A stretch of DNA of 64,000 nt. Source: Patescibacteria group bacterium. GTDB taxonomy: Bacteria > Patescibacteriota > Minisyncoccia > Moranbacterales > UBA2206. Below the pieces are notes generated by a model. The model did not search any database and was not told where the DNA came from. It saw only the letters and a list, made by a program, of their open reading frames with translations. Position numbers and translations under genes: made by a program. The DNA is taken from contig JAKLIG010000005.1 in NCBI GenBank assembly GCA_022709735.1, positions 5,884 to 69,883 of the forward strand. Direction: 5' to 3'. The first letter of the stretch is position 1, and each line of letters starts with the position of its first letter. Positions 47,405 to 62,616 of this stretch are shown piece by piece.

Positions 47405-48428
47405 AACGATATTCTACATTACAACTTCCTTCTCTTGAAACCATGCAAGCTCCTTGCGGATTATCTGGCGTACAAACTTTTCTAAAAAGCGGACAATTTT
47501 TCGGCTCAATTATCCCTTGCAAAACTTCTCCACAATGACAAACACTAGGCTTGTTTTTTATATTTTTTTTAATTTTAGCAATCAATTCTCTGTGAATAAA
47601 TTCAGCATCTTGGTTTTTATATTTCTTTTTAATTTTAAGTCCAGAATTTTTAATTTCTCCCAAGCCCCTCCATCTGGCATTTTTGGCTTCAAAAACTTTG
47701 GAAATTAATTTCTGCGCTTTTTTATTTCCTTCTTTTTGCACAAGTCTCGCATATTCATTTTCTACTTTTTTTTCTTTTTTGGTTATTTGATCTAATAGCA
47801 TATCAATTGCTTTGATCACGTCCGTTGCGGAAAATCCGGCTACTACCTGGGGAATTTTAAATTTTTTATAAATCTCTGCACCGATTATCACACTCACATG
47901 TCCAGGATTAATAAAGCCGTCAATTTTAATTTTATTATTTCGTAGCAAGGCTCTCATCGCTGGCGGAAAAATTTTATGCGAAGAAAAAACCTTGAGACCA
48001 TTTTGAATTCCCCAAGCCGTCATTGGCGCGGTTGTTTCAAAGCCAATTCCCCAAAATATTAAATCAGGATTTTTTTTAGAAATTTTTAAAGCTTCTGAAA
48101 TATCATAAACAATATAAATTTCAGCTCCTTGTTGTCTGGCGTTTTCTAAACTTCCCAGATTTCCCGGGATATTAGCCGAATCGCCATAGCAGGCGATTGG
48201 AATGCCGGAAAGCGCAAGGCCAGTTATAATATCGACATCGCTTTGATCTGCCACGCAAACTGGACAGCCCGGACCGGAAATCATTTTTATATTTTTTGGC
48301 AAAATATTTTTTATTCCATATTTGGCAATTGTTTCACTGTGCGTTCCGCAAAGTTCCATAAGCCTAATCGGCCGTCTTATTATTTTCGCTTTTTCTTGAA
48401 TGTTTTTTAAAATTTTTTTATACTTCAT
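47397..48428 (-). CDS. hypD: Hydrogenase maturation protein HypD
   Basis: CGTH, GPGCPVCV and C-terminal CxCGxxL...CPxF...CTP..P.GACMVS.EG.C motifs. Confidence 0.88.
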   Translation of the reverse strand: MKYKKILKNIQEKAKIIRRPIRLMELCGTHSETIAKYGIKNILPKNIKMISGPGCPVCVADQSDVDIITGLALSGIPIACYGDSANIPGNLGSLENARQQGAEIYIVYDISEALKISKKNPDLIFWGIGFETTAPMTAWGIQNGLKVFSSHKIFPPAMRALLRNNKIKIDGFINPGHVSVIIGAEIYKKFKIPQVVAGFSATDVIKAIDMLLDQITKKEKKVENEYARLVQKEGNKKAQKLISKVFEAKNARWRGLGEIKNSGLKIKKKYKNQDAEFIHRELIAKIKKNIKNKPSVCHCGEVLQGIIEPKNCPLFRKVCTPDNPQGACMVSREGSCNVEYRYG

Positions 48429-48624
48429 TTTTTAAATAAGCTTTTATTTCTTTTGCATTATCTTTATCCATTTTTTCAATTGCAAATCCGGCATGTACCA
48501 TTACATAGTCGCCAATTTTTGCCGAAATTAGACTAATATTTATTTCTTTTTTCATGCCTTGAAAATCAACTATTGCCAGTTGATTTTTGATTTTTATTAT
48601 TTTTCCAGGAATTGCCAAACACAT
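48418..48624 (-). CDS. hypC: Hydrogenase assembly chaperone HypC
   Basis: Starts MCLAIPGKII. The ORF-track N-terminal extension (MQGCSILFLL...) is encoded by repeat element D1. Confidence 0.8.
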   Translation of the reverse strand: MCLAIPGKIIKIKNQLAIVDFQGMKKEINISLISAKIGDYVMVHAGFAIEKMDKDNAKEIKAYLKNEV

Positions 48625-48660
48625 GCCAATTTTGTCTGCGAACATAGTGAGCAGGAACAA

Positions 48661-48788
48661 AATTGAGCATCCCTGCACTAATTCACAAATTAAACTTTTT
48701 ATTAAAATATAACTAAGCCGTAGGCGATTCCGTGGAATAATTTTTACATTAAATAAAATCTCTATTCGGAATTAGTGCGGGATCGCCA
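48661..48788. repeat. Intercistronic repeat family D, copy D1 (about 125 bp, terminal inverted repeats GCATCCCTGCACTAATTC ... GAATTAGTGCGGGAT)
   Basis: Aligns along its length with 62470-62598 (D2). Both have 15-17-bp terminal inverted repeats and an internal AGCCGYAGGCGAATTC core. Confidence 0.7.
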
Positions 48789-48794
48789 GTCAAC

Positions 48795-49832
48795 TCACAA
48801 ACGAATTTTTCCTGTCTTTATCTTCTCCTTATCCCTAACCAGTCTTGCCACTTCCCTTTCAGAAAGCACATAATCTAAAAACTCGTTTTTATTTTTCTTT
48901 TTGTATATTTTGGAAGAGATGAAAAATACTGCGATGTCAGCTGGATTTATTTTTTCTTGCTTCGCATAATCAGTTTTAATTTGCTTTATAATTTCATCTT
49001 CGTTATCTTTGTCCTTTTCTGATAAACTTATAATTTTCTCAAAACCTAAATTAATTAGCAATTTATTCAAATCTTTCTCCGGGCTTATGCCAATTTTAAT
49101 TTGCTCTAATATTTTTTCTTCTATCCCAAAATCCAAAACTGCTACAGAAAATTTCTTGAGATCATCTAGTGTTTCTACAATTTCCCCATAATTATTTTGA
49201 TCCATAAGCGAAGCAGTCGGGCAAACTCGAACGCACTCCCCACAAAAACTGCAATCCAAAACTTTTTCATAAGGCGTCCCGACCACAATGTCACTTCCTC
49301 TGTGATTAAACCCAAAAGCTTTTTCTGGACAAACATTTATGCACTTCCGGCATTCCACGCAAAATTCGCTGTTTCTGGAAATGCATGGGTTTTCATTTTC
49401 CACTACGACTCTTGTCCAGTTGTCGCGTATCAAATCTAGCTCTTCCTGGCCAGTTATCTCGCCCTTTCTCGGAATAAAATGAAAATTTTCAATTTTATAT
49501 TCCTCGGCCAAACTTTGCAATTTGCACATTCGGTTTTTCTTGCAAGTCGCGCATTTTCCGGCATGATCTGCCCAAAGCAGTTCCAAATTAATTCTCCTAG
49601 CCTTGTCTATATTCTCGCTTTCGGTAATAATTTCCATCCCTTCCGCCACTTTCGTGTTGCAGGATGTCATTAATTTTCCATTAATTTCCACCACGCAAAT
49701 TCGGCATAATCCTTCCTGAAATTCTTTGCTCGAACACAAAGTGGGAATTTTTATTCCATTATTTTTACAAACTTTAAATATCCCCTCTCCCTCTTTCGCT
49801 TCGTAAATTTTATTGTTGATTTTTATTTCCAT
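48795..49832 (-). CDS. Iron-sulfur subunit resembling NuoG N-terminus / HoxU (2Fe-2S + His-ligated 4Fe-4S + two 4Fe-4S ferredoxin motifs), no H-cluster domain
   Basis: Cys patterns C..C...C (2Fe-2S), HAGKCATCKKNRMC, CVECRKCINVCP, CSFCGECVRVCP. The C-terminal about 110 aa has no cysteines. Confidence 0.65.
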   Translation of the reverse strand: MEIKINNKIYEAKEGEGIFKVCKNNGIKIPTLCSSKEFQEGLCRICVVEINGKLMTSCNTKVAEGMEIITESENIDKARRINLELLWADHAGKCATCKKNRMCKLQSLAEEYKIENFHFIPRKGEITGQEELDLIRDNWTRVVVENENPCISRNSEFCVECRKCINVCPEKAFGFNHRGSDIVVGTPYEKVLDCSFCGECVRVCPTASLMDQNNYGEIVETLDDLKKFSVAVLDFGIEEKILEQIKIGISPEKDLNKLLINLGFEKIISLSEKDKDNEDEIIKQIKTDYAKQEKINPADIAVFFISSKIYKKKNKNEFLDYVLSEREVARLVRDKEKIKTGKIRL

Positions 49833-51061
49833 ATTTTTAATTTTTCCACTGCGTCTTGAAACGCAGTTGCCGAAAATTTTCCCAGCGGGCAAAATGTAGT
49901 ATTATTCAGCGTCCACAAAATATCTTTAACCGCTTCTTTGTCTCTATCAGAAATTTTATTGTCCCGAAATCTTTTAGCAATTTCCCAAAGCCTAAAAGTT
50001 CCTTCCCGGCACGGCACGCATTTCCCGCAGGATTCCCGCCGAAAAAAATCCGTCCAAGAAATCAGAAGGTCGTGAATATTCACACTTTTATCAACCACTA
50101 AAATTGAACCGGAACCCATTTGTACGGACAGGTCGCGACCTGTCCCTACGCTGAAATTTAATTTTGCATCCAATTCTTTTTCCAAAAACAATTTTCCGCA
50201 TGCTCCGCCAATTTGCGCAAACCAAAATTCTTTTCCCTTTTGAATTCCGCCAGCATATTCTTCAATTAATTCTTTGACTGTTATCCCGGTCGGTGCTTCA
50301 TAAACTCCCGGATTCTTGACTGCTCCGCTTAGAATAAATAATTTTGTCCCAGGCGAATTTTTCGCGCCAATCTTTGCATATTCTTTTCCGCCCTGCAAAA
50401 TTATCCAGGGAATATTAGAAATAGTTTCGGCATTATTCACTGCTGTCGGACAACCAAATAATCCAGCCTGGGTAGGATAAGGCGGACGGTATTTTGGTTC
50501 TCCACGATTGCCTTTGATGGAGTTTATAAGCGCCGTTTCCTCTCCGCAGATATAAGCCCCGGCGCCAGAAAAAATTTCAATTTCCAAATTATATTCTGAA
50601 CCTAAAATATTTTCTCCCCAATATTTTTTTTCTTTGGCCTGCTCTATCGCTCTTTCCAAAATTTCTTTTTGTTTTTCAAAATTTCCATTAATATAGATAT
50701 AAGCGCGTTTCGCACCAATAGAAAGCGCGGAAATTATTATTCCTTCCAAAAGCAAATGTGGATTATTATCTACGATTAATCTATCTTTGTATGTTCCCGG
50801 TTCTGATTCTTCCAAGTTGCAGATAAAATATTTTTCCGCTTTAGGATTATTTGCTACCGACTCTAATTTATTTCCAGTTGAAAAGCCCGCTCCTCCTCTT
50901 CCGCAAAGCCCGGATTTTTTAATTTCTTCCACCACTTCTTCCGGTTTCATTTTCGAAATAAATTTTCCAAGCGCTTCATATCCGCCAACTCCAAGATAGT
51001 CTTCTATTTTTAGAGGATCTATTTTTCCCCAGTGTTCAGTTATGATTTTTATATCTTTCAC
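49823..51061 (-). CDS. NuoF/HoxF-like flavoprotein subunit (NADH-binding, FMN, 4Fe-4S)
   Basis: GLCGRGGAGFSTGNK, FMN/NADH motifs, and a C-terminal CGKCVPCREG cluster motif. GTG start. Confidence 0.8.
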   Translation of the reverse strand: MKDIKIITEHWGKIDPLKIEDYLGVGGYEALGKFISKMKPEEVVEEIKKSGLCGRGGAGFSTGNKLESVANNPKAEKYFICNLEESEPGTYKDRLIVDNNPHLLLEGIIISALSIGAKRAYIYINGNFEKQKEILERAIEQAKEKKYWGENILGSEYNLEIEIFSGAGAYICGEETALINSIKGNRGEPKYRPPYPTQAGLFGCPTAVNNAETISNIPWIILQGGKEYAKIGAKNSPGTKLFILSGAVKNPGVYEAPTGITVKELIEEYAGGIQKGKEFWFAQIGGACGKLFLEKELDAKLNFSVGTGRDLSVQMGSGSILVVDKSVNIHDLLISWTDFFRRESCGKCVPCREGTFRLWEIAKRFRDNKISDRDKEAVKDILWTLNNTTFCPLGKFSATAFQDAVEKLKIWK

Positions 51062-51062
51062 A

Positions 51063-51170
51063 GAATTTTTAATTTTATAATTTTATAATTTTTAAATAAT
51101 TTCTAATGCTAAAATTTTTAAACATTAAAAATTAATATTTATTTATAAAATTAAAAATTCAAAAATTACA
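51063..51170. repeat. Intercistronic AT-rich repeat family A/B, copy A (about 105 bp) between the NuoE-like and NuoF-like genes
   Basis: About 92% identical over about 100 bp to 58258-58372. It begins 2 nt from the NuoF-like start codon. Confidence 0.7.
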
Positions 51171-51175
51171 AAATT

Positions 51176-51589
51176 TTACAAATATTCTTCCAAAATATCC
51201 CGTAGCTTGCTCAAATTAACTTTTTCATAAATTTTTCCATTCACAATCATAATTGGCCCCTCGCCACATTTCCCCAAACAACTTATTTCTTCTGCTTTTA
51301 TTTTGAATGAATTTTCAATTTCTCTGATTATTTCAAAAGAATTGTTGACCGCGCAATTGGCCGAAGAACACACTTGAATCAAAATTTGCGGTTGTTTTTT
51401 TGTTTTTACTAAATCATAAAAACTGGCCGTTTCAAAAACTTTACTTTGGGGGATAGAAAAATAACCAGCGATTTTCTGCGCATCTTCTTCGCTCACATAA
51501 CCAAAAGTGGCGCTAGTTTTTTTTAGCGCCGGAAGTAAATTTTCTACTTTAGGTTCAAATTCCAGAAGTATTTTTTGTATTGTTTGCAT
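51176..51589 (-). CDS. NuoE/HoxE-like thioredoxin-fold 2Fe-2S subunit
   Basis: CSSANCAVNNS ... CLGKCGEGP four-Cys pattern. The likely start is MQTIQKI (51589). Confidence 0.7.
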   Translation of the reverse strand: MQTIQKILLEFEPKVENLLPALKKTSATFGYVSEEDAQKIAGYFSIPQSKVFETASFYDLVKTKKQPQILIQVCSSANCAVNNSFEIIREIENSFKIKAEEISCLGKCGEGPIMIVNGKIYEKVNLSKLRDILEEYL

Positions 51590-51603
51590 AATTTCATACG
51601 GCG

Positions 51604-51686
51604 ACCCGAATTTACAAATGAACACTCGAATGATTCGAATGAATTCGGGACATTCGGATGAAGATTCGAGTTATTCGAGTCGCTTA
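51604..51686. repeat. Intercistronic repeat family C, copy C1 (about 80 bp) between fba stop and NuoE-like start
   Basis: About 90% identical to 60772-60852 and 61214-61293. Its end overlaps the fba stop codon. It lies 15 nt upstream of the downstream ATG, as the other two copies do. Confidence 0.75.
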
Positions 51687-52547
51687 AGCTTTGTCTTCGC
51701 TTCCAAAATATTTTATTTTCTGCTTAACCACTTCCTCGACTGCTTCTCTCGCTTCTTCCAAAAGCTTTCGAATATCAAAAGAAACTTCTTCTTTTTTTGC
51801 AGAGTTTATTATTCGATCGACAAAGGCCATTCTAATTGCCGTATCAACATTAAGACAACTTATTCCTCTTTTTATCACTTCCGCCACTTTTCCATTTTCC
51901 CAATCTGATGCGCCATGAAGAATGAGAGGAATACCTCCGCAAAGTTCATTTATCTTGCTCAGTCTTTCAAAATCCGGCTCTGATCTCTCTCTCACAAATC
52001 CATGCGCATTTCCAATCGCCACTGCCAGCGCGTCTATTCCGGTTTCTTTCACAAATCTTTCCGCTTCGTTTGGATCAGTCATATATTTTTCCCAATTTAT
52101 CTCCCGACTTCCTGCTTCTCCAAGATACGGAACGCTACCCAATTCTCCCTGAACATCGATTCCTTTTTCATGACAGAAATCAACAACTTTTTTTGTTGCT
52201 TCAACATTATCTTCATATTTTTTTCGCGAACCGTCATACATAACTGAAGTTAGACCAATTTCAGCGCAATGCTGGATAATTTCAAAACTTTTTCCGTGAT
52301 CAAGATGAATGCCGACTGGAATTTCTGGCGCATAAAATTCAACATCATTTTTTACTAAATGATAAATTAATCTGCCACCAGCATATTCCATGGTTTTTTC
52401 AGTAATCTGGATAATCACCGGCGAATGCATTTTTTTAGCCGCATCCACAATTGCTCTGGTCGTTTCTAAATTAACTGTGTTAAACGCTCCGACAGCGTAT
52501 CCTCCTTCTTTAGCTTTGGTTAGAATTTCTTTGACTGAAGTAATCAT
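51684..52547 (-). CDS. fba: Class II fructose-bisphosphate aldolase
   Basis: YAVGAFN, HLDHG, Zn ligands and the class II FBA/TBA fold. The likely start is MITSVKEIL. Confidence 0.8.
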   Translation of the reverse strand: MITSVKEILTKAKEGGYAVGAFNTVNLETTRAIVDAAKKMHSPVIIQITEKTMEYAGGRLIYHLVKNDVEFYAPEIPVGIHLDHGKSFEIIQHCAEIGLTSVMYDGSRKKYEDNVEATKKVVDFCHEKGIDVQGELGSVPYLGEAGSREINWEKYMTDPNEAERFVKETGIDALAVAIGNAHGFVRERSEPDFERLSKINELCGGIPLILHGASDWENGKVAEVIKRGISCLNVDTAIRMAFVDRIINSAKKEEVSFDIRKLLEEAREAVEEVVKQKIKYFGSEDKA

Positions 52548-52555
52548 ATTTTTTA

Positions 52556-53320
52556 TTAATTTATTATCTCTGCTATTTTTATAAACTCGTGCGGGGTCAA
52601 ACTTTCTCTTCCTACAAGAACTCCATCCAGCCCTGGTTTCAAACAAACTTGATCAACATTCAAAGAAGAAACGGAACCGCCATAAATAATTTTCACTTTT
52701 TCTGCATATTTTACTCCGAAAAGACCGGAGAGAATTTTTCGAATCAAAACTTTTGCTTCCATAATTTCATTTTCCGTAGGAATGACATCAGTTCCAACCG
52801 ACCAAATTGGTTCATAGGCAATGATAATATTTTCCGCTTTTGTCCGACTGATTTTTTCCAAAGCATTCTTGACTTGCTGACTGATAATTTTTAGCGTCTG
52901 TCCGCTATCTTTTTCTACCTTGGATTCTCCGACACAAATAATTGGCATGAGTCTATTCTTGAGCGCGGAAATAATTTTAAAATTTATTTCTTCATCCCGT
53001 TCACAAAAATATCTCCTTCTTTCGCTGTGCCCGACTATCACATATTCGCAACCAAAATTCTTAAGCATCAATGGAGAAATTTCTCCAGTATATGATCCTT
53101 TTTCTTCCCAAAACATATTTTGAGCACCAATTTTTGTTTTTTTTATTTTAGCTTTTTCAAATCCTTCCAGATGGATAGCCGGCGGGCAAAGAACAATTTC
53201 ACAATTTTTTATTTTTTTTCCGGCCAATTCTTTTTGAAAAAGTTCCAAATATTGGTCTCGCTCTGTCTTGGACAGTATATTCATTTTTAAGTTAGCTACG
53301 ATTATTTTATTCATTTTCAT
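52556..53320 (-). CDS. tpiA: Triosephosphate isomerase
   Basis: ANLKMN, VGHSERR, AYEPIWSVGTD. Confidence 0.85.
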   Translation of the reverse strand: MKMNKIIVANLKMNILSKTERDQYLELFQKELAGKKIKNCEIVLCPPAIHLEGFEKAKIKKTKIGAQNMFWEEKGSYTGEISPLMLKNFGCEYVIVGHSERRRYFCERDEEINFKIISALKNRLMPIICVGESKVEKDSGQTLKIISQQVKNALEKISRTKAENIIIAYEPIWSVGTDVIPTENEIMEAKVLIRKILSGLFGVKYAEKVKIIYGGSVSSLNVDQVCLKPGLDGVLVGRESLTPHEFIKIAEIIN

Positions 53321-53933
53321 TTTTTCTTATATTAATATGTCTTTTTATAAACCAAATAACTCCGACTAAAATTATTATCCCAATAATCAAATCGAATTTA
53401 TGAAAATATACGCCTAAAGTATTCCAGTTCTCTCCTAATTTTTCCCCGATATAGGCCAAAAGAAAACAAAAAGGAAATGAACCTAAGAATGTATAGGTGA
53501 TAAACTGCCAGAAATTCATTCGAGCAATTCCGGCTGGAAGTGAAATAAAAGTTCGAACAACCGGAAGAAGGCGAGAAATAAAAACTGCCGTGTTCCCATA
53601 TTTTTTGAAAAAATTATCCGCGATATCTAAATCATGCTTTGTTACCAGGACATATCGCCCGTATTTTTCAGCCAGTGGCCGTCCGCCGATATAGCCAATC
53701 CAATAAGCTAAAATTGAACCAATCACGCAACCGATTGCTCCGGCCAGAGATACTCCTAAAAGCGAAAATTGCCCTTTGAAAACTAGGTATCCAGAAAAAG
53801 GCATAATTATTTCAGAAGGTAGCGGAATGCAAGCTGATTCAATCGCCATCATCAAAGCCACGCCGGAATATCCCAAGAGAGAAATTCCCCAAATTATAAA
53901 ACTAGCTAAAATTTCAATTATTTTTGCAACCAT
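53307..53933 (-). CDS. DedA-family (VTT/SNARE-associated domain) membrane protein
   Basis: ESACIPLPSEIIMPFSGYLV motif with about 5 TM segments. Length 208 aa. Confidence 0.7.
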   Translation of the reverse strand: MVAKIIEILASFIIWGISLLGYSGVALMMAIESACIPLPSEIIMPFSGYLVFKGQFSLLGVSLAGAIGCVIGSILAYWIGYIGGRPLAEKYGRYVLVTKHDLDIADNFFKKYGNTAVFISRLLPVVRTFISLPAGIARMNFWQFITYTFLGSFPFCFLLAYIGEKLGENWNTLGVYFHKFDLIIGIIILVGVIWFIKRHINIRKNENE

Positions 53934-54943
53934 TAATTTTCTCTTAAAAATTCTGACGCTTCTTCCGGATTCATTGTGATAATTTCAATGCCGGTTGAAA
54001 TTTCAAATCCCGCCCAAATATTCAATTTTGGCAGAATTTCTATATGCCAGTGGAAATGCGGATAATCTTTGCCGTCGCAAGGAGAAGTATGGATATAGAA
54101 ATTAAAATCCGGATTATTAAGTTTCTCACTCAATCTTTTTATCGCTTCGTGAAGCGCTTCGCCTCCTGAAATTTTTTCTTTTTCGCTTATTCTTTCAAAA
54201 TACGGCTTGTGTTTTTTCGGGATAACCCACATTTCAAAATTTGATCTCGATGCAAACGGACAGAAAAGCAAGAAGTCATCGTTTTCAAAAACTATTCTTT
54301 TTTTATGTTCCATTTCCCATTCAATCATCGCACAATAAGCGCAATGTTTGTTTTGCCGGTGATATTTTTCTGCGCCGTCCAATTCGCTTTCAACATAAGG
54401 CGAGATTACCGGAATAGCAATCAGCTGGGAATGCGGATGAGTAATGGATGCTCCGGCCGACGCTCCGTGATTGTGGAAAATATCAATGTAATTTACCGAC
54501 TTTTTATTCATGAGATCAATATATCTCGACTGATAGGCATCCAAAATTTCAGCCACCCCCAGCGGTTCCATTTTCCCAATATGATCATAGTGATCTTTTG
54601 TCACAATTACTTCATGATAACCGATTGAGTCCATCCAAAAATATGGCCCCTCTTCTTTATGTTTGATTTGTCCGCCGGAAGGCCTTGAGAAAGCCGGGAA
54701 CTTATTGGGAAAAACTCGAAGGCTCCAATCATTATCCGTTGTATTATAAATCAAAACATCCTTTTCTTGGCCACTCGCTTCGGGATTGCAAAACAAACAA
54801 TCATTCGGATTTTCTTCGATTAATTCTTTTTCTTTTTTAATGAATTCGTCCGGACGGCGCGAGCGGATTTTGGAAACGACTACCCAATCCCCCGTTACCA
54901 AATCTTGCCGAAGTTCTGAAATTTTATTTTTTTCCTCCTTCAC
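53933..54943 (-). CDS. Galactose-1-phosphate uridylyltransferase (GalT)-family HIT-like nucleotidyltransferase
   Basis: N-terminal CLFCNPE zinc-site cysteines, and HxHxQ in ITHPHSQLIAIP. Confidence 0.6.
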   Translation of the reverse strand: MKEEKNKISELRQDLVTGDWVVVSKIRSRRPDEFIKKEKELIEENPNDCLFCNPEASGQEKDVLIYNTTDNDWSLRVFPNKFPAFSRPSGGQIKHKEEGPYFWMDSIGYHEVIVTKDHYDHIGKMEPLGVAEILDAYQSRYIDLMNKKSVNYIDIFHNHGASAGASITHPHSQLIAIPVISPYVESELDGAEKYHRQNKHCAYCAMIEWEMEHKKRIVFENDDFLLFCPFASRSNFEMWVIPKKHKPYFERISEKEKISGGEALHEAIKRLSEKLNNPDFNFYIHTSPCDGKDYPHFHWHIEILPKLNIWAGFEISTGIEIITMNPEEASEFLREN

Positions 54944-54967
54944 TTTTATTTTATTTTAAAATTATTT

Positions 54968-55735
54968 TTATTTTTCAAATTCGCTCATTTTTTTATTGAG
55001 CTGATAAACTCCTCGCACCTTATTCCACCAAACCTTGAATAATTCTCGAAATGTAATAAGATAACCCTTGATTCCAACCAAACTATTTCCCATATCCAGC
55101 CATTCGACCGGCACTTCTTCTATTTTGTAGCCTAATTTTTTCGCGATCATCAAAATTTCAAAATCAATTCCCCAGCGATCAACTTTTGTCCGCGGAAAAA
55201 CTTCTTTCACCACTTCTTCTTTGAAAGCTTTGAAACCGCATTGCGTATCATAAATTCCATACAGTCCCATCATAATTTGAATCAAAATATTTCCAGCATT
55301 CCCCATCCATTCTTTCCATTTTGGCTGGTGTTTTTTTATGCTCGAAGCCTTAAGATCTCTTGAACCAATTACTATGTCGGTCTCTTTGAATTTTGGAATA
55401 AAATTATCCAAATTATCAATTGGCGTTGCGCCGTCCATATCAGTCCAGATCACCCATTCTCCTTTAGCCATTGCAAATCCTTCTCGAATACTATAGCCCT
55501 TGCCCTTATTTTCTTTTCTGTCGATTATTCTAAAGTTAGGTTTATTCTTAATTTTATCTCTGACTATTTCCGCTGTTTTGTCAGTTGGCCCGTCCAGCGC
55601 AATTATGACCTCATAACTCTTCCCTATTTTTTCAAAATAACTTTTAATAGAGTTGAGATGATCCTCCATTTCTTTTTCTTTTGGCGCTTCGTTGTAGGTT
55701 GGAATAACTACAGATATAAATGGTTTCTGTTCCAT
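54968..55735 (-). CDS. Family 2 glycosyltransferase (dolichyl/polyprenyl-phosphate glycosyltransferase-like)
   Basis: ISVVIPTYNE ... ALDGPTDKT ... DMDG motifs. Length 255 aa. Confidence 0.7.
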   Translation of the reverse strand: MEQKPFISVVIPTYNEAPKEKEMEDHLNSIKSYFEKIGKSYEVIIALDGPTDKTAEIVRDKIKNKPNFRIIDRKENKGKGYSIREGFAMAKGEWVIWTDMDGATPIDNLDNFIPKFKETDIVIGSRDLKASSIKKHQPKWKEWMGNAGNILIQIMMGLYGIYDTQCGFKAFKEEVVKEVFPRTKVDRWGIDFEILMIAKKLGYKIEEVPVEWLDMGNSLVGIKGYLITFRELFKVWWNKVRGVYQLNKKMSEFEK

Positions 55736-55861
55736 TTTTCTTGTGGGTTAATGGTTATTTATTGACTATATTGTAGCATAGAATTGATGAATTATGAAGT
55801 ATGAATCAAGAATTAGGAATTTTAAAATTTTATTCATAATTCATGCTTCTTAATTCCTAAT

Positions 55862-56287
55862 TCATTTCTTGTCCAGCCAGCTTTGAAGAATAATCCTCGC
55901 CGCTTCCTGATCATCAAATCTTTTGACGCCTTTGACTTTTTTGGCAATTAAATTCGCCTGCGCCATTTTGGTCGTGAACATTTCATTTTGATATTCAATT
56001 TCCATCTTAGGCAAAGATTTTTTTATCATTTCTCCTAGCTTTTCGCCTTCGTAAACGACCTCTTTTTTATTTATATAGCTCGGCACACCGATAATAATCT
56101 TGGAAATATTTTCTTTTTGGATAATTTTCAGCAAATTTTCCAGAAAATTTTTGTCATTTTCCAGTGTATTATAGGCAAAAGCAATTTTAGTCTCAAAATC
56201 TGCCAAAGCCAAACCAACTTTGGCTTCTCCAAAATCTATACCGAGAATGTGGCTTATTTGAGGGTCATTTTGCTGGTCTATTGACAT
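55862..56287 (-). CDS. ruvX: RuvX/YqgF Holliday-junction-resolvase-like nuclease
   Basis: ILGIDFGEAKVGLALAD RNase-H-like motif. The likely start is MSIDQQ. Confidence 0.75.
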   Translation of the reverse strand: MSIDQQNDPQISHILGIDFGEAKVGLALADFETKIAFAYNTLENDKNFLENLLKIIQKENISKIIIGVPSYINKKEVVYEGEKLGEMIKKSLPKMEIEYQNEMFTTKMAQANLIAKKVKGVKRFDDQEAARIILQSWLDKK

Positions 56288-56377
56288 ATTAGTAAAATTA
56301 GCGTATAATTTAGAGTTAGTATTAAAGTAAAGAATGTTCCCTAACAACAATAATATAAATTAAAAAAGGGGTGGCTT

Positions 56378-56746
56378 ATGAAATTAACAGGATGGGTCTA
56401 TTTTCTGGTTTTGGGAGGATTATTTCTGCTCGCAGGGAATGCTGGCTTTTCTGAAGGTCATTCAGTATTCGGATGGTGCTATATAACACTCGGGGTAGTT
56501 GTATTATTTTTTCCTTTTATCCTGAGATTCATTCAATCGAAGGGGAAGAAAAAGTTTTTCTGGAAATCGCTCCGAGTAGTTGGCAGCGGGATTGTTATTT
56601 TTACTATTGGCATCGTGTCTTGTGTATATGATGTCAATAATATTTTTAACAATCTTTATATTCTTATGCTTATTGGAGTAGCTTGCATGCTTGGCATAGG
56701 AATATCGCTAATTGTAGTATCCTCCTGGAAGTTACAGGAGAGATAG
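56378..56746 (+). CDS. Hypothetical polytopic membrane protein (122 aa)
   Basis: RBS AAAAGGGGTGG and four hydrophobic segments. Confidence 0.5.
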   Translation: MKLTGWVYFLVLGGLFLLAGNAGFSEGHSVFGWCYITLGVVVLFFPFILRFIQSKGKKKFFWKSLRVVGSGIVIFTIGIVSCVYDVNNIFNNLYILMLIGVACMLGIGISLIVVSSWKLQER

Positions 56747-56799
56747 GATAAGTTCGCTTTGTGATCATTCAACAATGATTGTCACTGAGCTTATCCGAA

Positions 56800-56838
56800 A
56801 ACCGGGACATGTCTAGCAGTAGACCCCCGGTTTTTTTA
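56800..56838. terminator. Terminator hairpin (AACCGGG...CCCGGTT + T7) between convergent genes
   Basis: Read directly from the sequence. Confidence 0.65.
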
Positions 56839-57597
56839 TTTTCTTGTCAAAATCTCGCACCCTCCTTTTTTGACTAGCACTGTATCTTCAAAATGCGCGC
56901 TAAGTTTTCCGTCGTCCGTAATATATGTCCAACCATCCGCGCCTAATTTAATCCTAAACTTTCCTTCATTTATCATCGGCTCAAGCGCGAGCGTCATTCC
57001 TTCTTTGAGAATTATGTCTTTGACATTCCAGCGATAATTTGGAATCTGCGGATCTTCATGAAGAATTTTTCCAACGCCGTGTCCGACTAAATCGCGAATA
57101 ACAGAAAATCCAAAAGTGCGAACATAACTTTCAACTGCCTCGGAATATTCGCTAAGCTTTGCTCCGGCTCTAATTTTTGCAATTCCTTGATTCAACGCTT
57201 CCTGCGTCGCTTTCACTAACTTATGCGCTTCAAGACTCACTGTTCCAACAGGAAATGTGCGAGCCATATCAGTTATCATTCCCTTATATTCCATGCCAAT
57301 GTCAATTTTCACCAAATCGCCTTCTCGAATTATAATTTTTTCGCTCGGAATTCCATGCACCACTTCATTATTTATCGAAGCGCAAATTGTCGCAGGATAT
57401 GGATTATTTTTTTCTCCATAACCTTTGAAGGCAGGTTTGCCCCCATTATCAAAAACAAGTCTCTCCGCGAGCTTGTCTAGTTCCAATGTATTTATGCCCG
57501 GAGCAATTTTCTCTCCTATTTCTTCCATAATACCCGCCAAAATTTTCCCTCCCCGGCGCATTGATTCTATTTCATTTTGAGTTTTAATTACTACCAT
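56836..57597 (-). CDS. map: Methionine aminopeptidase type I
   Basis: Pita-bread fold motifs (VVHGIP..., DLVKIDIG, metal ligands D/D/H/E/E). Confidence 0.88.
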   Translation of the reverse strand: MVVIKTQNEIESMRRGGKILAGIMEEIGEKIAPGINTLELDKLAERLVFDNGGKPAFKGYGEKNNPYPATICASINNEVVHGIPSEKIIIREGDLVKIDIGMEYKGMITDMARTFPVGTVSLEAHKLVKATQEALNQGIAKIRAGAKLSEYSEAVESYVRTFGFSVIRDLVGHGVGKILHEDPQIPNYRWNVKDIILKEGMTLALEPMINEGKFRIKLGADGWTYITDDGKLSAHFEDTVLVKKGGCEILTRK

Positions 57598-58256
57598 ATT
57601 TTCTCTAATATATCCTCGAACACTTTTTCAATTTCCTGATCACCGTTAATTTCTGCTAACTTTCCTTCTTTTTTATAATATTCCACAATTGGCATCGTTT
57701 CTTCTTTGAATATCCCCAATCTTTTTTTCACACCTTCTTCACTGTCATCAATCCGCTGAATTATTTTCCCTCCACATTCATTGCCTGCCTGCCGGTAGGC
57801 ATGGCATTTTTCTCCTGCACTCTGAATATCTTTTCCTAGAATAAAAACTTTTTTGCATTTTTCACAAACTCTTCTTTTGGAGATTCTTTTGATTGATTCT
57901 TCCTTTGAAAGATTAATGGAAATAACTTTGTCTATTTTTCTTCCTGATTCTTTGATCGCTTCTTCAAAATAGCCAAGCTGATCAATGCTTCTCGGCACCC
58001 CATCAAAAACAATTCCTTGTTCTCTTGGAAGCCCTAATAATTTCAAATGGATCACTTCTCGTAATATTCTGTCGCTTACTAATTCTTTTTTAATGTTAAC
58101 GATTTCGTGAATTTCTTTTCCAAGCGGAGTTTCAAGAAGCGCTACCTCGCGCAAAAACTTTCCCATATCAATATGTTCCGCTTCAAATTTCTTTGCTAAT
58201 TTTTCCGCTTGCGTTCCTTTGCCGGAACCTTGCGGACCTAAAATTACTATATTCAA
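57591..58256 (-). CDS. adk: Adenylate kinase (with Cys4 LID zinc site)
   Basis: NIVILGPQGSGKGTQA P-loop; CEKCKK...C...C in the LID. Apparent TTG start. Confidence 0.85.
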   Translation of the reverse strand: MNIVILGPQGSGKGTQAEKLAKKFEAEHIDMGKFLREVALLETPLGKEIHEIVNIKKELVSDRILREVIHLKLLGLPREQGIVFDGVPRSIDQLGYFEEAIKESGRKIDKVISINLSKEESIKRISKRRVCEKCKKVFILGKDIQSAGEKCHAYRQAGNECGGKIIQRIDDSEEGVKKRLGIFKEETMPIVEYYKKEGKLAEINGDQEIEKVFEDILEKIW

Positions 58257-58257
58257 A

Positions 58258-58372
58258 AAATTTTATAATTTTATAATTTTATAATTTTTAAATAATTTTT
58301 AATGCCAAATTTTTAAACATTAGAAATTAAGATTTATTTATAAAATTAAAAATTGGAAATTAAAAATTCGAG
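58258..58372. repeat. Intercistronic AT-rich repeat family A/B, copy B (about 110 bp) between secY stop and adk start
   Basis: Aligns with 51063-51170. It contains one extra TTTTATAA unit. Confidence 0.7.
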
Positions 58373-58385
58373 CGAAGCGAGTTTT

Positions 58386-59657
58386 TCAAAATCCTTCGTA
58401 ATCCCTCATTACCAATTGTCCTTCAATTTGATTGATAAGTTCAATTACCACGGAAACTACGATCAAAAGTCCCGTGCCTCCAATTGAAACTGAACCGATG
58501 CTGGTAAAATTTTGAACAATGAAAGGCAAGACGGCAATGAGCCCAAGAAACACGGCGCCGGTGAGCGTCACGCGATTCATAATCCGAAAAAGATATTCGG
58601 AAGTATTTTTTCCCGGACGAATTCCCGGAACATATCCGCCTTGTTTTTGCAAATTTTCCGCAATTTTGTTGGGATCAAAAACTACCGCGGTATAAAAATA
58701 AGTGAAAGCTACAACTAGAACGAAATAAATTGCGCCGTAGAAAAATTGATTTTGGAAAAAATTTCCCACTGCGCGCGCAATTCCAGCAACTGTTCCATTG
58801 GAAGAGCTAGCCAAAAAATTTGCTACCATTCCTGGGAAAAGCATAATCGACATCGCAAAAATAATTGGGATAACTCCGGCTTGATTGATGCGAAGCGGAA
58901 GATGCGTGGAAGTTCCGCCATACATTCGGTTTCCTCGAATTCTCTTGGCATAAGAAATGGGAATATTTCTCTGCCCTTCCGTCATAAAAACCACTGCGCC
59001 AACCGCGCCAACTGTGATGGCTAAAAATATAATATAAGTGAAAAGTTGGGATGAATCCCAAGTGGAAACAATGCGGGAAATCGCTGAAGGCAAACTAGAA
59101 ACTATGCCGGCAAAGATAATAAGCGAAACTCCATTGCCGATTTTTTTTTCTGTAATCAACTCACCTAGCCACATCAGAAATATCGTTCCGGCCACAGCTA
59201 CAATTATAATTGAGGCTAGCCCAAACATACCTTCCGGCGCCATAATTTGTTGAGCACGAAAAAGCGACATCATACCAATTGTTTGAAGCGCCGCGAGAGG
59301 AACTGTGAGCCAGCGAGTCCATTGATTGAATTTTTCCCGGCCGGCTTCGCCTTCTTCCTTGTAGATTTGTTCGAGTCTCGGGCTAATCATTGTCATAAGC
59401 TGCATAATAATAGAAGAGGTAATGTATGGTCCGACTCCGAGCATCACGATTGAAATACTGGATAGTCCTCCGCCGGAAAAAAGATTAAGTAGCCCGAAAA
59501 ATTGATTGTTATCAAAAAACATCTTGAGTCTTTCCTGGTCAATTCCTGGTATAGGAATGTTGGCCGCCAGACGAAAAATTACCAAAAGCGCCAAGATAAA
59601 AAATATCTTGTTTCTTAGTTCTTTTACTTTGAAGATTTGGATTATTTTGTCAAACAT
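58386..59657 (-). CDS. secY: Preprotein translocase subunit SecY
   Basis: 10-TM SecY topology and motifs. Length 423 aa. Confidence 0.9.
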   Translation of the reverse strand: MFDKIIQIFKVKELRNKIFFILALLVIFRLAANIPIPGIDQERLKMFFDNNQFFGLLNLFSGGGLSSISIVMLGVGPYITSSIIMQLMTMISPRLEQIYKEEGEAGREKFNQWTRWLTVPLAALQTIGMMSLFRAQQIMAPEGMFGLASIIIVAVAGTIFLMWLGELITEKKIGNGVSLIIFAGIVSSLPSAISRIVSTWDSSQLFTYIIFLAITVGAVGAVVFMTEGQRNIPISYAKRIRGNRMYGGTSTHLPLRINQAGVIPIIFAMSIMLFPGMVANFLASSSNGTVAGIARAVGNFFQNQFFYGAIYFVLVVAFTYFYTAVVFDPNKIAENLQKQGGYVPGIRPGKNTSEYLFRIMNRVTLTGAVFLGLIAVLPFIVQNFTSIGSVSIGGTGLLIVVSVVIELINQIEGQLVMRDYEGF

Positions 59658-59660
59658 AAG

Positions 59661-59720
59661 TTAGCTTTTAGCTTTTAGCTTTTAGCTTTTAGCTTTCTCT
59701 ATAAGCTATAAGCTAACTCC
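59661..59720. repeat. Heptamer microsatellite (AGCTTTT)x5 followed by (TATAAGC) units
   Basis: GTTAGCTTTTAGCTTTTAGCTTTTAGCTTTTAGCTTTCTCTATAAGCTATAAGCTAAC. Confidence 0.85.
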
Positions 59721-60157
59721 TATAAGCTAATCTTGCTATTGGATTTTTCAATTGACTTTGAAAAGAGAATGCCTTTTTCAAAAGAAAGTTTCTTTGTAAT
59801 TTTCCCGCCACCGATAATTTTCACACCATTCTTTTTATTCTTTCTGTCAATTAAACCGGCCTGAATTAAAGTATCAATGCTTACAGTTTCTCCATCCTTG
59901 AATTTTTTTTCAATCTTGGAAAACTGGACTATATTCTTTTTTTCTTTTCTAGATTTGAAACCTCTATTTTTTTTCATGTGATCAATAAGCGTTGAGCGCC
60001 CGCCTTCAAATAAAGGATCAACATGCGCGCCACTTCGCGCCTTTTGCCCCTTGTTTCCCTTACCACAATATGTTCCCTTTTTTCCGCCTCGCCCGATAGT
60101 CTTTCTTTTTTTTCTTTTATTATTAAGTTTTAGATTATTAACTTGCATATTTTTCAT
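59720..60157 (-). CDS. rplO: 50S ribosomal protein L15
   Basis: GRGGKKGTYCGKGNKGQKARSG matches the uL15 signature. Confidence 0.8.
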   Translation of the reverse strand: MKNMQVNNLKLNNKRKKRKTIGRGGKKGTYCGKGNKGQKARSGAHVDPLFEGGRSTLIDHMKKNRGFKSRKEKKNIVQFSKIEKKFKDGETVSIDTLIQAGLIDRKNKKNGVKIIGGGKITKKLSFEKGILFSKSIEKSNSKISL

Positions 60158-60259
60158 TTACGAACTACGAAATGATCGAAATACGAAACGTTTTTAGATA
60201 TATTCTCGTATTAATTTTTCGTATTTTCGTATTTAGTATTAATTTCGTATTTCGTAAAA

Positions 60260-60757
60260 CTATTTCATTCTTTCTCCTCTTGTTTTTGAATCTTTAAGAA
60301 TTTTCAAAGCTTCAATGGTGGCTCTCGCAACATTCAGCTTGTTCGCTGTTCCTAGAGATTTTGAAACGATATCTTTTATTCCAGCCAAATCAATGACCGC
60401 TCGCACTGCACCTCCTGCCACGATTCCTCGTCCTTTCGGCGCTGGTTTCAAAATTATCTTAGCACTGCCTGATTTTATGAATATATCATGGCTAATCGTA
60501 TTTTTTTGAACATCAATGTTTATCATGTTCTTTTTGCCGTCATCAAAAGCTTTTTTGATTGCATCTGTCACATCAGCGCCTTTTCCGACTCCTACACCTA
60601 CTCGCCCTTTTTTATTGCCAATAACCAAAGTAGCGCGGAATCTAAATCTTCTTCCACCCTTAACCACGCGAGTGACTCTCGCTAAATCCAAAAGTTTTTG
60701 GTCATATTCCGGCTTTTCTCTTCTGCCTTTTGATCTTCGATTATTATCTCTTCCCAT
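60260..60757 (-). CDS. rpsE: 30S ribosomal protein S5
   Basis: dsRBD-like N-terminal and S5 C-terminal domains (VVKGGRRFRF...). Confidence 0.88.
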   Translation of the reverse strand: MGRDNNRRSKGRREKPEYDQKLLDLARVTRVVKGGRRFRFRATLVIGNKKGRVGVGVGKGADVTDAIKKAFDDGKKNMINIDVQKNTISHDIFIKSGSAKIILKPAPKGRGIVAGGAVRAVIDLAGIKDIVSKSLGTANKLNVARATIEALKILKDSKTRGERMK

Positions 60758-60771
60758 TTGATTTATGCGAC

Positions 60772-60852
60772 ACTAATTTACGAATGATCACTCGAATGTT
60801 TCGAATAAATTCGGGTCATTCGGGTGATAATTCGTATTATTCGAGTCGCTTT
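60772..60852. repeat. Intercistronic repeat family C, copy C2 (between L18 stop and S5 start)
   Basis: TAATTTACGAATGATCACTCGAATGTTTCGAATAAATTCGGGTCATTCGGGTGATAATTCGTATTATTCGAGTCGCTTT. Confidence 0.75.
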
Positions 60853-61199
60853 TAGAATTTTAATCCGCCCGTTCTTGCTCCTTCAGCCAGAGCTTTTATT
60901 TTTCCGTGATATTTATAACCGCTTCTATCATATACGACTTCATTAATTTTTTTCTCAAGACATTTTTTCGCTACCAATTCTCCGACGCTTTTCGCTCCTT
61001 CTAAATTATTTTTAGCTTTTTTTATTTCCTTAAGACTGGCAAAAACCAGCGTCTTTCCCTTGGTGTCATCAATTACTTGCGCCGATATTCCCTTAAGGCT
61101 TTTGAAAACTGAAAGTCGCGGTCTTTTAGCCTCGCCTTTAACTTTCGCCCTTACGCGTCTTTTTCGATGGAGTCTTAGATTGTTTCTACTTGTTTTCAT
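60852..61199 (-). CDS. rplR: 50S ribosomal protein L18
   Basis: uL18 N-terminal basic region and fold. Length 115 aa. Confidence 0.85.
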   Translation of the reverse strand: MKTSRNNLRLHRKRRVRAKVKGEAKRPRLSVFKSLKGISAQVIDDTKGKTLVFASLKEIKKAKNNLEGAKSVGELVAKKCLEKKINEVVYDRSGYKYHGKIKALAEGARTGGLKF

Positions 61200-61213
61200 A
61201 TAATTTATGCAAC

Positions 61214-61293
61214 CCTAATTTACGAATGAACACTCGAATTATTCGAATGAATTCGGGTCATTCGGGTGATAATTCGTGTCATTCGAGTCGCTT
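61214..61293. repeat. Intercistronic repeat family C, copy C3 (between L6 stop and L18 start)
   Basis: Near-identical to C2. It ends at the L6 stop codon and lies 15 nt upstream of the L18 ATG. Confidence 0.75.
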
Positions 61294-61837
61294 ATTTAAC
61301 GGCTCCCGCTTTTTTTCCAACTTTTCTTATAACTTTTTCTCCCTGATATCTGAATCCTTTTCCTTTATACGGTTCAACTTTCTTAAGCGCTCTAATGTTT
61401 GCGGTAAATTGTCCAACTTTTTGCTTGTCAAATCCAGAAATAGACAGCGTGTTATTTTCTTCAATTTTAACTGTCAGTCCTTCCGGAACAATTACTTCTA
61501 CCGGATGAGAAAATCCCAGCGCCATAACTAATTTCTTGCCCTGAAGAGACATTCGAAATCCCACGCCCTGAAGCTCCAATTTTTTCTCATAACCATTTTT
61601 TGCGCCAATAATCATATTATTCACCAGCGCCCGAGTGAGCCCCCAAAGCGCATTCGCTTCCTTGGAACTTCTAAGTGGAGAGGTTTTTATTTCTCCGTCA
61701 GCTATTTCCAATTTGATCTGGCGATTAACTTCCAAATTCAAAGTTCCCTTGGGGCCTTTTACTTCCAATTTATCACCTTCGAGTTTTACTTCAATCCCCT
61801 GCGGAATTGTAATTATTTTTTTTCCTATTTTTGACAT
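61292..61837 (-). CDS. rplF: 50S ribosomal protein L6
   Basis: Two uL6 alpha/beta repeats. The likely start is MSKIGKKIITIP. Confidence 0.85.
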   Translation of the reverse strand: MSKIGKKIITIPQGIEVKLEGDKLEVKGPKGTLNLEVNRQIKLEIADGEIKTSPLRSSKEANALWGLTRALVNNMIIGAKNGYEKKLELQGVGFRMSLQGKKLVMALGFSHPVEVIVPEGLTVKIEENNTLSISGFDKQKVGQFTANIRALKKVEPYKGKGFRYQGEKVIRKVGKKAGAVK

Positions 61838-61847
61838 AAATTTATGT

Positions 61848-62240
61848 TTACCAGACTTCGCAAATATATTCTCCACCTAAACCAAGTTTCCTTGATTCAC
61901 TGCCGGTCATTACTCCTTTAGAAGTAGAGAGAATAGCTGTGCCATAATTATTTTTAACATCCTTAATATCCTTATTTTTAATATAAATTCTCTGGCCCGA
62001 TTTACTGATTTTTCGCAGTCCCGTAATGGCCGGAATTTTTCTAGTCTTCGAAGCTTGATAATATTTCAGGGTTATTTTGATCAATCCTTCTTTCTCCATA
62101 GAAACTGCTTCTATGAAACCTTCCTTTTTTAATATTTCCGCCAAAGCAAATCTAAGCTTAGACGGTCTTATCACCGTTTCCTTTTGCCCAGCCATCTGAG
62201 CATTTCTTATTTTAGTTAGCATTTCAGAAATTTTGTCCAT
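61848..62240 (-). CDS. rpsH: 30S ribosomal protein S8
   Basis: MLTKIRNA... uS8 signature. Length 130 aa. Confidence 0.88.
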   Translation of the reverse strand: MDKISEMLTKIRNAQMAGQKETVIRPSKLRFALAEILKKEGFIEAVSMEKEGLIKITLKYYQASKTRKIPAITGLRKISKSGQRIYIKNKDIKDVKNNYGTAILSTSKGVMTGSESRKLGLGGEYICEVW

Positions 62241-62254
62241 AATTTATAAATTAA

Positions 62255-62440
62255 TTACCAACTGGCTTTTTTAACTCCTGGAATTTGTCCGGTACTGGCT
62301 AATTCTCGAAAACATATCCGGCAAAGATCAAAATGCCTCATATAGCCATGCTTTCTTCCGCACTTCCAACAACGCCTGACAATTCGGGTTGAAAATTTAG
62401 GTTTTTTTCGAGCTCTTGCTTCTGTTGATTTCTTTGCCAT
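62255..62440 (-). CDS. rpsN: 30S ribosomal protein S14 type Z (zinc-binding)
   Basis: 61-aa core MAKKST...[25 protein letters not shown]. The upstream extension in the ORF track is encoded by repeat D2. Confidence 0.82.
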
Positions 62441-62469
62441 AATTGTCTTCGAGCGGAGCGAGAAGCTAC

Positions 62470-62598
62470 AATTATGAGCATCCCGCACCAATTCACAGAT
62501 TAATTTTTCTATTACATCTTAGCTTAGCCGCAGGCGAATTCGCAATTTAAATTATACACTTTGTAAAATTTTAATTGGAATTGGTGCGGGATAGCCAT
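62470..62598. repeat. Intercistronic repeat family D, copy D2 (terminal inverted repeats GCATCCCGCACCAATTC ... GAATTGGTGCGGGAT)
   Basis: Aligns with 48661-48788. It lies between the L5 stop and the S14 start. Confidence 0.7.
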
Positions 62599-62616
62599 CT
62601 TTTTTCTTCTTTATTG

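Follow-up and report, generated by a model that had tools for sequence, protein, structure and literature searches.

A 64-kb window (the whole stretch of DNA analysed, 64,000 nucleotides of contig JAKLIG010000005.1, assembly GCA_022709735.1, from a Patescibacteria group bacterium) carries two copies of a short AT-rich repeat, named family A in this study. One copy lies between a NuoE-like and a NuoF-like gene and the other between secY and adk. Pfam supported the NuoE-like, NuoF-like, SecY and ADK identities, as well as those of the surrounding spc-operon genes. All genes around both copies are on the minus strand and were read as the reverse complement; positions are given in window numbering. 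Family A is a palindromic, non-coding repeat that is dispersed and under sequence constraint, and its junctions are polymorphic for insertion, loss and replacement. The two copies and their landmarks are as follows.

51064..51175, minus strand: family A copy 1 (copy A), 112 nt, an imperfect AT-only palindrome; nhmmer score 57 bits
58259..58368, minus strand: family A copy 2 (copy B), 110 nt, ending 2 nt before the adk TTG; nhmmer score 55 bits
51178-51176, minus strand: TAA stop of the NuoE-like gene
51059..51061, minus strand: GTG start of the NuoF-like gene (412 aa)
58388-58386, minus strand: TGA stop of secY
58369..58385, minus strand: 17-nt AAAACTCGCTTCGCTCG spacer between the secY stop and copy B, not family A
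58254..58256, minus strand: TTG start of adk (221 aa), aligned with the ATG of the orthologues

Both stretches had been recognised in a preliminary description of this DNA, and only their limits needed a slight correction, to those given above. Copy A runs from the base directly behind the TAA of the NuoE-like gene to 2 nt short of the NuoF-like GTG, thus covering all except the final 2 nt of the 114-nt gap. In the gap of copy B, the first 17 nt after the secY stop are a different motif. The first 9 nt of this AAAACTCGCTTCGCTCG spacer match the 20-nt element-free secY-adk spacer of a relative (L043, introduced below), and the motif CTCGCTTCGCTC from the same spacer was seen again in the L15-secY spacers of two relatives, L040 and L043. 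The GTG and TTG starts which follow the two copies agreed with the JGI gene calls for the source contig (Ga0116154_10000225) and with the N-termini of the orthologues.

The two copies were compared by blastn, and the reported identity of about 92% over about 100 bp was reproduced (92.2% over 102 nt, E=4e-30, 119 bits), with the best unrelated match anywhere in the 64 kb reaching 35 bits. The extra TTTTATAA unit by which the copies had been said to differ is also real, as the number and order of the outer arm words vary among copies. The preliminary description had named low-complexity composition as the explanation that would undo the repeat, and this was examined directly. The local alignment score of the two copies was 89, compared to 31.3 +/- 4.0 (maximum 51) in 1000 dinucleotide-preserving shuffles (z=14.6). 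Only three other windows with a G+C content of 15% or less were present (110 nt, 10-nt steps), overlapping at about 32.2 kb, and their score was at most 28. The repeat is therefore not explained by composition alone.

Family A elements are 110-113 nt long, with a G+C content of 6-13% and no open reading frame. Their termini are 5'-AATTTTRTAATTTTT ... AAAAATTAYAAAATT-3', with AATTTTT-type words making up the 5' arm and AAAAATT-type words the 3' arm; inwards of the arms come an internal loop and then an apical stem-loop, which is the only part of the element to contain G or C. The apical stem-loops were found in both the minimum free energy and the centroid structures, at these positions.

51097..51134, minus strand: apical stem-loop of copy A, AAUUUUUAAUGUUU / AGCAUUAGAAAUU, with a 10-nt loop
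58293..58329, minus strand: apical stem-loop of copy B

Depending on the copy and the strand, the predicted folding energy was -15 to -25 kcal/mol. None of 200 shuffles was as stable as copy A on either strand; copy B exceeded all 200 on the plus strand only (z=-3.1), the sense strand giving z=-1.5. A single hairpin spanning the whole element was predicted for nearly all of the 24 family A copies folded, and the consensus fold of these 24 retained only an invariant 13-pair stem. The element-sense strand was usually the more stable, irrespective of gene orientation. This strand preference is thus an inherited feature of the element and not independent evidence for selection at the RNA level. 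A covariance scan of positions 45000-64000 with Rfam release 15 gave nothing on either copy, even at E<=1; with permissive settings, only chance miRNA-like matches were obtained, on other hairpins.

Family A was then sought in other genomes. A pattern based on the apical loop retrieved nine full-length copies from GTDB species-representative genomes, in addition to two chance matches; five of the nine were in the Candidatus Moranbacteria metagenome-assembled genome CG23 (PCRW01) and four in other Patescibacteria-type assemblies of this kind. An independent pattern, based on the 5' arm, retrieved 24 metagenome stretches, 22 of which retained the rest of the element including the 3' arm; the other two were L028, a chance match, and L027, cut at a contig end. 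Two further, diverged copies were found by a profile search. After deduplication, the family amounted to approximately 27 copies at approximately 24 independent sites, in at least 10 Patescibacteria/Moranbacteria assemblies. The window organism itself is placed in the Moranbacteria by its adk protein, the nearest relatives being 76-80% identical. All sites but one were between co-directional genes, and the host gap was mostly 105-131 nt, i.e. the element makes up essentially the entire gap. Seventeen copies had the orientation of the genes and six the opposite (two-sided binomial p ~0.035, by hand arithmetic). Neither pattern gave a single copy among 2.9 million viral contigs, and phage was on this count rejected as the vector of family A. 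Literature searches yielded no description of such repeats in Moranbacteria or in the Candidate Phyla Radiation.

To place the two junctions in context, six syntenic loci extending from L4 to HypD were compared: L001 is the window organism, L038, L034 and L041 are CG23, and L039, L040, L042 and L043 are further relatives. Intergenic gaps in these loci were bimodal, with either up to about 30 nt or about 75-130 nt. Among the gaps of 60-135 nt (n=55), 46 folded as a single enclosing hairpin and 50 had z<-2. These hairpins fell into at least eight sequence families which share one layout, words followed by a loop and then by the complementary words. Hairpins in gaps of at least 55 nt occupied 62 of 112 junctions. 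Across families, the median distance was 2 nt from the stop codon to the hairpin and 9 nt from the hairpin to the start. Operon-internal non-coding DNA was otherwise limited to spacers of 0-25 nt. As practically only short stop-to-start spacers are non-coding, an insert of about 110 nt necessarily fills the gap and abuts the start codon.

The same junction was differently occupied in different relatives. At secY-adk, family A was present in the window, a family of ACGAAAT words in L038, GCGAATG in L039, CATGAAA in L040, another 56-nt sequence in L042 and a 20-nt spacer in L043. At TIM-FBA, the window had an 8-nt spacer, L038 and L043 had family A, and L039, L040 and L042 had three other families. 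At NuoE-NuoF, family A was found in the window and in L038, unrelated hairpins in L039 and L040, a 6-nt AATTTT in L042 and a 13-nt AATTAAAAATTCC in L043. The AATTTT of L042 equals the first 6 nt of the family A element, and the 13 nt of L043 match the L038 gap exactly over its final 13 nt. By their sequence, these two spacers look like what deletions would leave, ending at short direct repeats (AATT and GT). The notion that the elements are fixed parts of these two operons was hence not sustained, as the same junctions of relatives are empty or otherwise filled.

Clean pairs of filled and empty junctions also exist between L038 and L039, whose coding sequences are 93% identical. At L16-L29, one of the two has TAA-T-ATG and the other a 93-nt element, and L2-S19 and L24-L5 are similar. 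In the window organism, two copies of another family were identical over 106 of 106 nt, at L2-S19 and L22-S3 (L001 3117-3222 and 4134-4240, on the same contig just past the window end); such identity indicates a very recent duplication or conversion. Copies of the ACGAAAT family were nearly identical at L18-S5 and S8-L6 of L038. The family A copy in L029 bears a nested GC-rich mini-hairpin, a small palindrome of the CCGCC..GGCGG type (L029 ~2167-2204), which was also found in the window at 14252-14333 (38 nt, 87% identical between the two). Copying, replacement, nesting and loss together are the behaviour of mobile repeats. Similar CCCGCCTCG...CGAGGCGGG hairpins, judged by eye, were nested in other word-built hairpins (L038 FBA-NuoE; L040 S19-S3 and L15-secY), and the nested palindromes suggest a second, smaller class of inserting element.

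Resident copies, once in place, were highly conserved. Between lineages, coding identity was 74-79% and identity at third codon positions 48-60%, which is near saturation; the closer pairs were L038-L039 (93% coding, 86% third position) and L040-L042 (85% and 77%). Family A at NuoE-NuoF was identical at 111 of 114 positions between the window and L038 (also L034), compared to 81 of 138 flanking third positions (59%), and all three differences were at unpaired positions. At TIM-FBA, the L038 and L043 copies differed by three substitutions in 78 aligned nt, compared to a third-position identity of 52% over all shared equal-length genes of the loci. The latter two copies also have in common a private stem variant, CCAAAT/ATTTGG, which argues for common descent rather than independent insertion. 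For other families, the NuoG-HypC element matched at 133 of 143 positions between L039 and L040 (flanking third positions 62%), and four same-junction elements of L038 and L039 at 422 of 426, compared to 1158 of 1356 third positions of the flanking genes. Of the paired positions 5.0% were substituted, compared to 11.7% of those unpaired (odds ratio 0.40, stems changing 2.3 times more slowly), and about half of the changed pairs remained paired. Single-sequence reference folds were used for this comparison, the pair structures from RNAalifold having been rejected as circular. Within-genome concerted evolution was rejected, as the copies do not group by genome. Recent horizontal transfer of the nuo region was likewise rejected as the source of the 97% identity at NuoE-NuoF, the flanking genes being 74-76% identical. 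As a separate observation, coding identity between L038 and L039 falls from about 0.95 to 0.79-0.87 over the nuo/hyp genes, between NuoE and HypC, which suggests a recombination breakpoint; the hairpin families at NuoE-NuoF and NuoG-HypC also differ between these two genomes.

The other junction hairpins of the window, all on the minus strand, are listed here.

51590..51683, minus strand: family C hairpin (CGAAT words), filling the FBA-NuoE gap
60758..60851, minus strand: family C hairpin, filling the L18-S5 gap; the same family is there in L040 (82 of 94 aligned nt, 0.87)
61200..61291, minus strand: family C hairpin, filling the L6-L18 gap
60158..60259, minus strand: ACGAAAT-word hairpin, filling the S5-L15 gap; the commonest family in L038 and L039
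59658..59719, minus strand: AGCTAAA/AGCTTAT-word hairpin, filling the L15-secY gap
55736..55861, minus strand: ATGAATT-word hairpin in the RuvX-GT2 gap
48646..48794, minus strand: CCCGCAC...GTGCAGGGAT long-range hairpin element in the NuoG-HypC gap; 133 of 139 aligned nt agree with the same junction of L038
62492..62616, minus strand: second, diverged copy (~72% identical) of the CCCGCAC element in the L5-S14 gap

The NuoE-like gene is, as originally noted, flanked by families A and C, and family C occurs twice more in the spc operon; its three window copies are 92-94 nt long and 84-91% identical to one another. The proposed system of several families of intercistronic elements was supported, and it extends past this genome, with family A and the ACGAAAT family both in other Moranbacteria/Patescibacteria. 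The latter has at least eight copies within 20 kb of L038 and was also found in L039, L040, L004, L011, L013, L026 and L036. Some elements extend into the upstream gene: in L038 and L039, the last five codons of adk and its stop come from ACGAAAT words.

Several related sequences were seen elsewhere. AGCTAAA/AGCTTAT heptamer hairpins or arrays also lie at 14178-14225 and 30627-30664, and L022 has a related stretch. A repeat of about 128 nt (3686-3813 and 9023-9150, 80% identical), between two large genes lacking a Pfam match, consists of ATGAATT/ATTCATA words and shares words with the RuvX-GT2 hairpin. The G/C-containing CCCGCAC element, with its long-range pairing ATCCCGCAC...GTGCGGGAT, recurs at other junctions, among them L15-secY of L040 and L043, and could itself be a structured RNA. 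Heptamers (ATTCTTA/CTTCTTA) are arranged in tandem at 19841-19920, inside a 335-nt intergenic gap, and this array may be the raw material for word-built hairpins or a product of their decay. The database gene calls miss S14 in L001 and L038 (window 62255-62491), next to hairpin elements, and L22 in L040 (2075-2921), also beside them; the hairpin elements may disturb gene callers.

The position of the elements directly before start codons had led to the proposal that any ribosome-binding determinant must be inside the element. In four syntenic loci (L001, L038, L039 and L040), just 4 of the 121 genes were preceded by a GGAG, GAGG or AGGA motif, whether an element was present or not, and the regions upstream of starts were A/T-rich. 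Empty junctions, such as TAA-TAAAAAAT-ATG, likewise lacked the motif. Judging from these upstream sequences, the lineage appears to initiate translation without Shine-Dalgarno pairing, and the near-absence of such motifs renders the ribosome-binding argument moot. A link between the elements and non-ATG starts did not hold either: the start was ATG for 7 of 11 same-orientation copies abutting a start codon, adk has ATG in all orthologues, and NuoF has GTG even behind another family (L040) or none (L042 and L043). Nor was a preference for highly transcribed operons observed, with gaps of at least 55 nt at 32 of 68 ribosomal-protein junctions, compared to 30 of 44 other junctions of the same loci.

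Family A was compared with known small repeats. Miniature inverted-repeat transposable elements (MITEs) are generally shorter than 200 bp, although sizes up to about 400 bp occur, and have no transposase gene; ERIC (~127 bp, Table 1 therein), Correia (~104-157 bp) and RUP (107 bp) elements are of the same size class (PMC3184786). Family A has the features of a MITE in its size, lack of coding capacity, inverted termini, long hairpin, dispersed copies and presence or absence at orthologous sites. In their behaviour, ERIC and Correia elements are the closest to it. Like family A, ERIC/IRU sequences are imperfect palindromes of about 110-130 bp which lie in transcribed (for family A, presumably transcribed) intergenic regions of operons in either orientation and have no known transposase. 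Wilson and Sharp are said to have found in 2006 that orthologous ERIC copies are more conserved than expected of neutral spacers. There is no sequence similarity, however: ERIC is found in Enterobacteriaceae, whereas family A is AT-only, word-built and from Patescibacteria. Furthermore, many unrelated families here share one architecture and occupy about half of the operon junctions, including those of ribosomal-protein operons. The Correia/NEMIS elements of Neisseria are also small, non-coding, bounded by terminal inverted repeats, located between genes and co-transcribed as a long hairpin, as family A presumably is. Their terminal inverted repeats measure 26 bp, they duplicate a TA target and contain an IHF site, and their hairpins are cut by RNase III and can change the expression of neighbouring genes. 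In family A, by contrast, no target duplication or IHF-type site was discernible.

Other systems resemble family A less. REP, BIME and REPIN sequences are extragenic palindromes, often between co-directional genes. REPs are described in PMC3733652 as G+C-rich palindromes of 20-40 nt with a GTAG or CGTC tag, and REPINs in PMC3116915 and PMC8049555 as inverted doublets forming hairpins of about 100 nt, without target duplications, which persist as long-lived sequence populations. Family A, in contrast, is AT-only and has no GTAG/CGTC tag, and REPs have a cognate RAYT gene; no RAYT (Y1 transposase) gene was present in the 64-kb window. RUP of Streptococcus pneumoniae (107 bp) is similar in size class. 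Its mobilisation is attributed to an IS630-type transposase, with duplication of TA. Rickettsia palindromic elements (RPE) insert into gene ends and add codons, and the ACGAAAT words at the end of adk recall them; unlike RPE, which lie inside open reading frames, the family A copies are intergenic. Integron attC sites are imperfect palindromes too, 60-140 nt long and active as folded single strands, and follow each co-directional open reading frame, much as family A does. An attC identity was rejected, as the flanking genes are syntenic core genes and not cassettes and no integrase was found; GTTRRRY/RYYYAAC cores were not evident by eye in the alignments, of which no pattern scan was made. 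TIGR arrays of Patescibacteria and phages consist of tandem units of about 36 nt or stem-loops with box C/D motifs, beside a Tas gene. A TIGR-Tas array was rejected too, as the elements are single and dispersed among housekeeping genes, and neither an array nor a gene with a Tas/Nop domain was found in the window.

Family A is probably an ERIC/Correia-like, MITE-type hairpin repeat of about 110 bp in Candidatus Moranbacteria which is copied into operon spacers, co-transcribed, and kept folded by selection. Copying of the element into very short stop-to-start spacers occurs or once occurred; it would then be transcribed within the operon mRNA and fold as a self-contained A-U hairpin. Such an insert might be tolerated since the lineage does without Shine-Dalgarno sites and since folding conceals its AU-rich sequence. 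Starts are presumably chosen by a lack of structure, as the missing motifs suggest, and an unfolded AU-rich spacer of 110 nt would then offer false starts. By melting the stem at its base, a ribosome terminating at the stop codon could release the start region, such that stop-start coupling would survive the insertion, in the manner of the RNA-unfolding model of translational coupling (PMC12548453). Mutations weakening the stem would be selected against, whereas deletion of the whole element would be tolerated, which could account for both the conservation and the turnover. It would thus be purifying selection that holds resident copies folded and raises their conservation at the same junction above that of synonymous sites.

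Some observations weigh against this mobile-repeat explanation. None of the approximately 60 open reading frames of the 64-kb window encodes a transposase or recombinase, and an autonomous partner was not found. No consistent target-site duplication was seen at about 15 boundaries or in pairs of filled and empty junctions, and AT-only ends would mask a duplication of 1-2 bp; a possible GT/GT repeat at NuoE-NuoF fits a deletion end-point equally well as a target duplication. There were no compensatory double substitutions in family A, the alignable stem being invariant across the 24 copies. Across 62 elements, the transcribed strand had no excess stability (33 vs 27, p=0.52), so the constraint may act on the RNA or on the DNA. 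The strong conservation of resident copies is unlike that of neutral selfish DNA and points towards a host-level role or enforced maintenance. Transcription, folding in vivo and coupling we infer from the sequence.

An alternative which we regard as possible, if unlikely, puts function first. The hairpins would be host-functional punctuation of operons, i.e. interchangeable RNA modules (RNase III-type sites, mRNA stabilisers or coupling devices) maintained by selection, with copying being incidental; this overlaps with the mobile-repeat explanation. Conservation of same-junction copies beyond synonymous sites and of stems beyond loops would be expected of such modules, and so would the polar geometry (a median of 2 nt after the stop, with about 9 nt free before the start), the swapping of families at a junction rather than its being left empty, and the 17:6 bias toward the gene sense. 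However, a hand count gives differences at about 10 of 29 junctions between genomes whose coding identity is 93%, including filled junctions opposite spacers of 1-2 nt, and L043 has spacers of 3-24 nt at several of these junctions, so no junction needs a hairpin. In addition, 6 of 23 copies are antisense to the operon, and stability shows no strand asymmetry. A bolder form of this idea, offered tentatively, is that Moranbacteria, lacking Shine-Dalgarno sites, use exchangeable, word-built hairpins of about 100 nt as punctuation. These might be copied between junctions, set flush with stops and kept beyond synonymous saturation, and might mediate stop-start coupling and/or endonucleolytic processing of mRNA, including that of ribosomal-protein operons. 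If true, family A would count as one of the allele classes in a new kind of mobile RNA module that is functionally integrated, with a logic like that of mitochondrial tRNA punctuation.

Spread without a transposase, by microhomology-mediated template switching or by gene conversion between AT-rich spacers and copies, possibly with imported DNA, was judged improbable. It would explain why neither a target-site duplication at the boundaries inspected nor a transposase in the window was found, and why deletion end-points lie at short direct repeats. It would also fit the tendency of paralogues to neighbour each other, and the L14-L24 junction of L039, which carries the variant that both genomes have at S5-L15, as if by conversion between two copies some 3.5 kb apart. 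On the other hand, families with G/C-containing ends (GCGACTCGAAT... and CTTTACGAAT...) have entered AT-rich spacers of 1-10 nt without homology, and conversion is unable to make the first copy at an empty junction.

That the repeats act at the DNA level, as promoters or UP-elements, as intrinsic terminators, or as arrays of sites bound by a nucleoid or other protein that reads the heptamer words, seems very improbable. AT-only sequence does contain -10-like words, a lone weak promoter-like match lies in copy B (58308-58281, 9/12), the 7-8 nt periodicity of the words could suit repeated protein contacts, and the absent strand asymmetry is compatible with constraint on the DNA. Nevertheless, promoter-like and terminator-like counts across the region equalled chance expectation, and no terminator-like site was found in either copy, the stems being A-U pairs without G+C and the U-tract inconsistent among copies. 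Operon expression could not be reconciled with terminators in nearly every gap between ribosomal-protein genes, and at least eight families of unrelated words would need equally many binding proteins in a very small genome. Lastly, the reading of the similarity as mere AT-rich low-complexity sequence, to which the low G+C content and the arms of short repeated words might lend themselves, is already refuted by the alignment and blastn scores and by the two independent patterns that retrieved full-length elements from other genomes.

Two further features of the window were noted. Two UvrA paralogues are encoded at 736-3558 and 15456-18347, with UvrB, UvrC and LexA-like genes nearby, and the similarity of these paralogues explains the direct-repeat families D2, D3 and D9. 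Three tandem repeats of 213 nt (40656-41300), 77-82% identical, are contained in an open reading frame with a dockerin domain.

The genomes of Candidate Phyla Radiation bacteria are regarded as tiny, streamlined and poor in mobile elements, and the S10/spc ribosomal-protein operons are normally among the most compact and conserved bacterial loci. Here, about half of the stop-to-start junctions in a core region of 20 kb, including the S10/spc operons, carry hairpin repeats of about 100 nt. What is unusual in this system is the many word-built families of one architecture, the saturation of operon junctions and the deep conservation of resident copies: the repeats turn over fast between relatives, yet resident copies evolve many times more slowly than synonymous sites. 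For practical purposes, the elements are abundant strain-level markers for these uncultivated organisms, and a caution for gene callers and operon predictors, as they can supply stop codons and C-terminal residues. They also provide a testable case of selfish palindromes living in essential operons where translation does not depend on Shine-Dalgarno sites. If the hairpins act in coupling or in mRNA processing, gene expression in this major uncultivated lineage would have an additional, new level of control.

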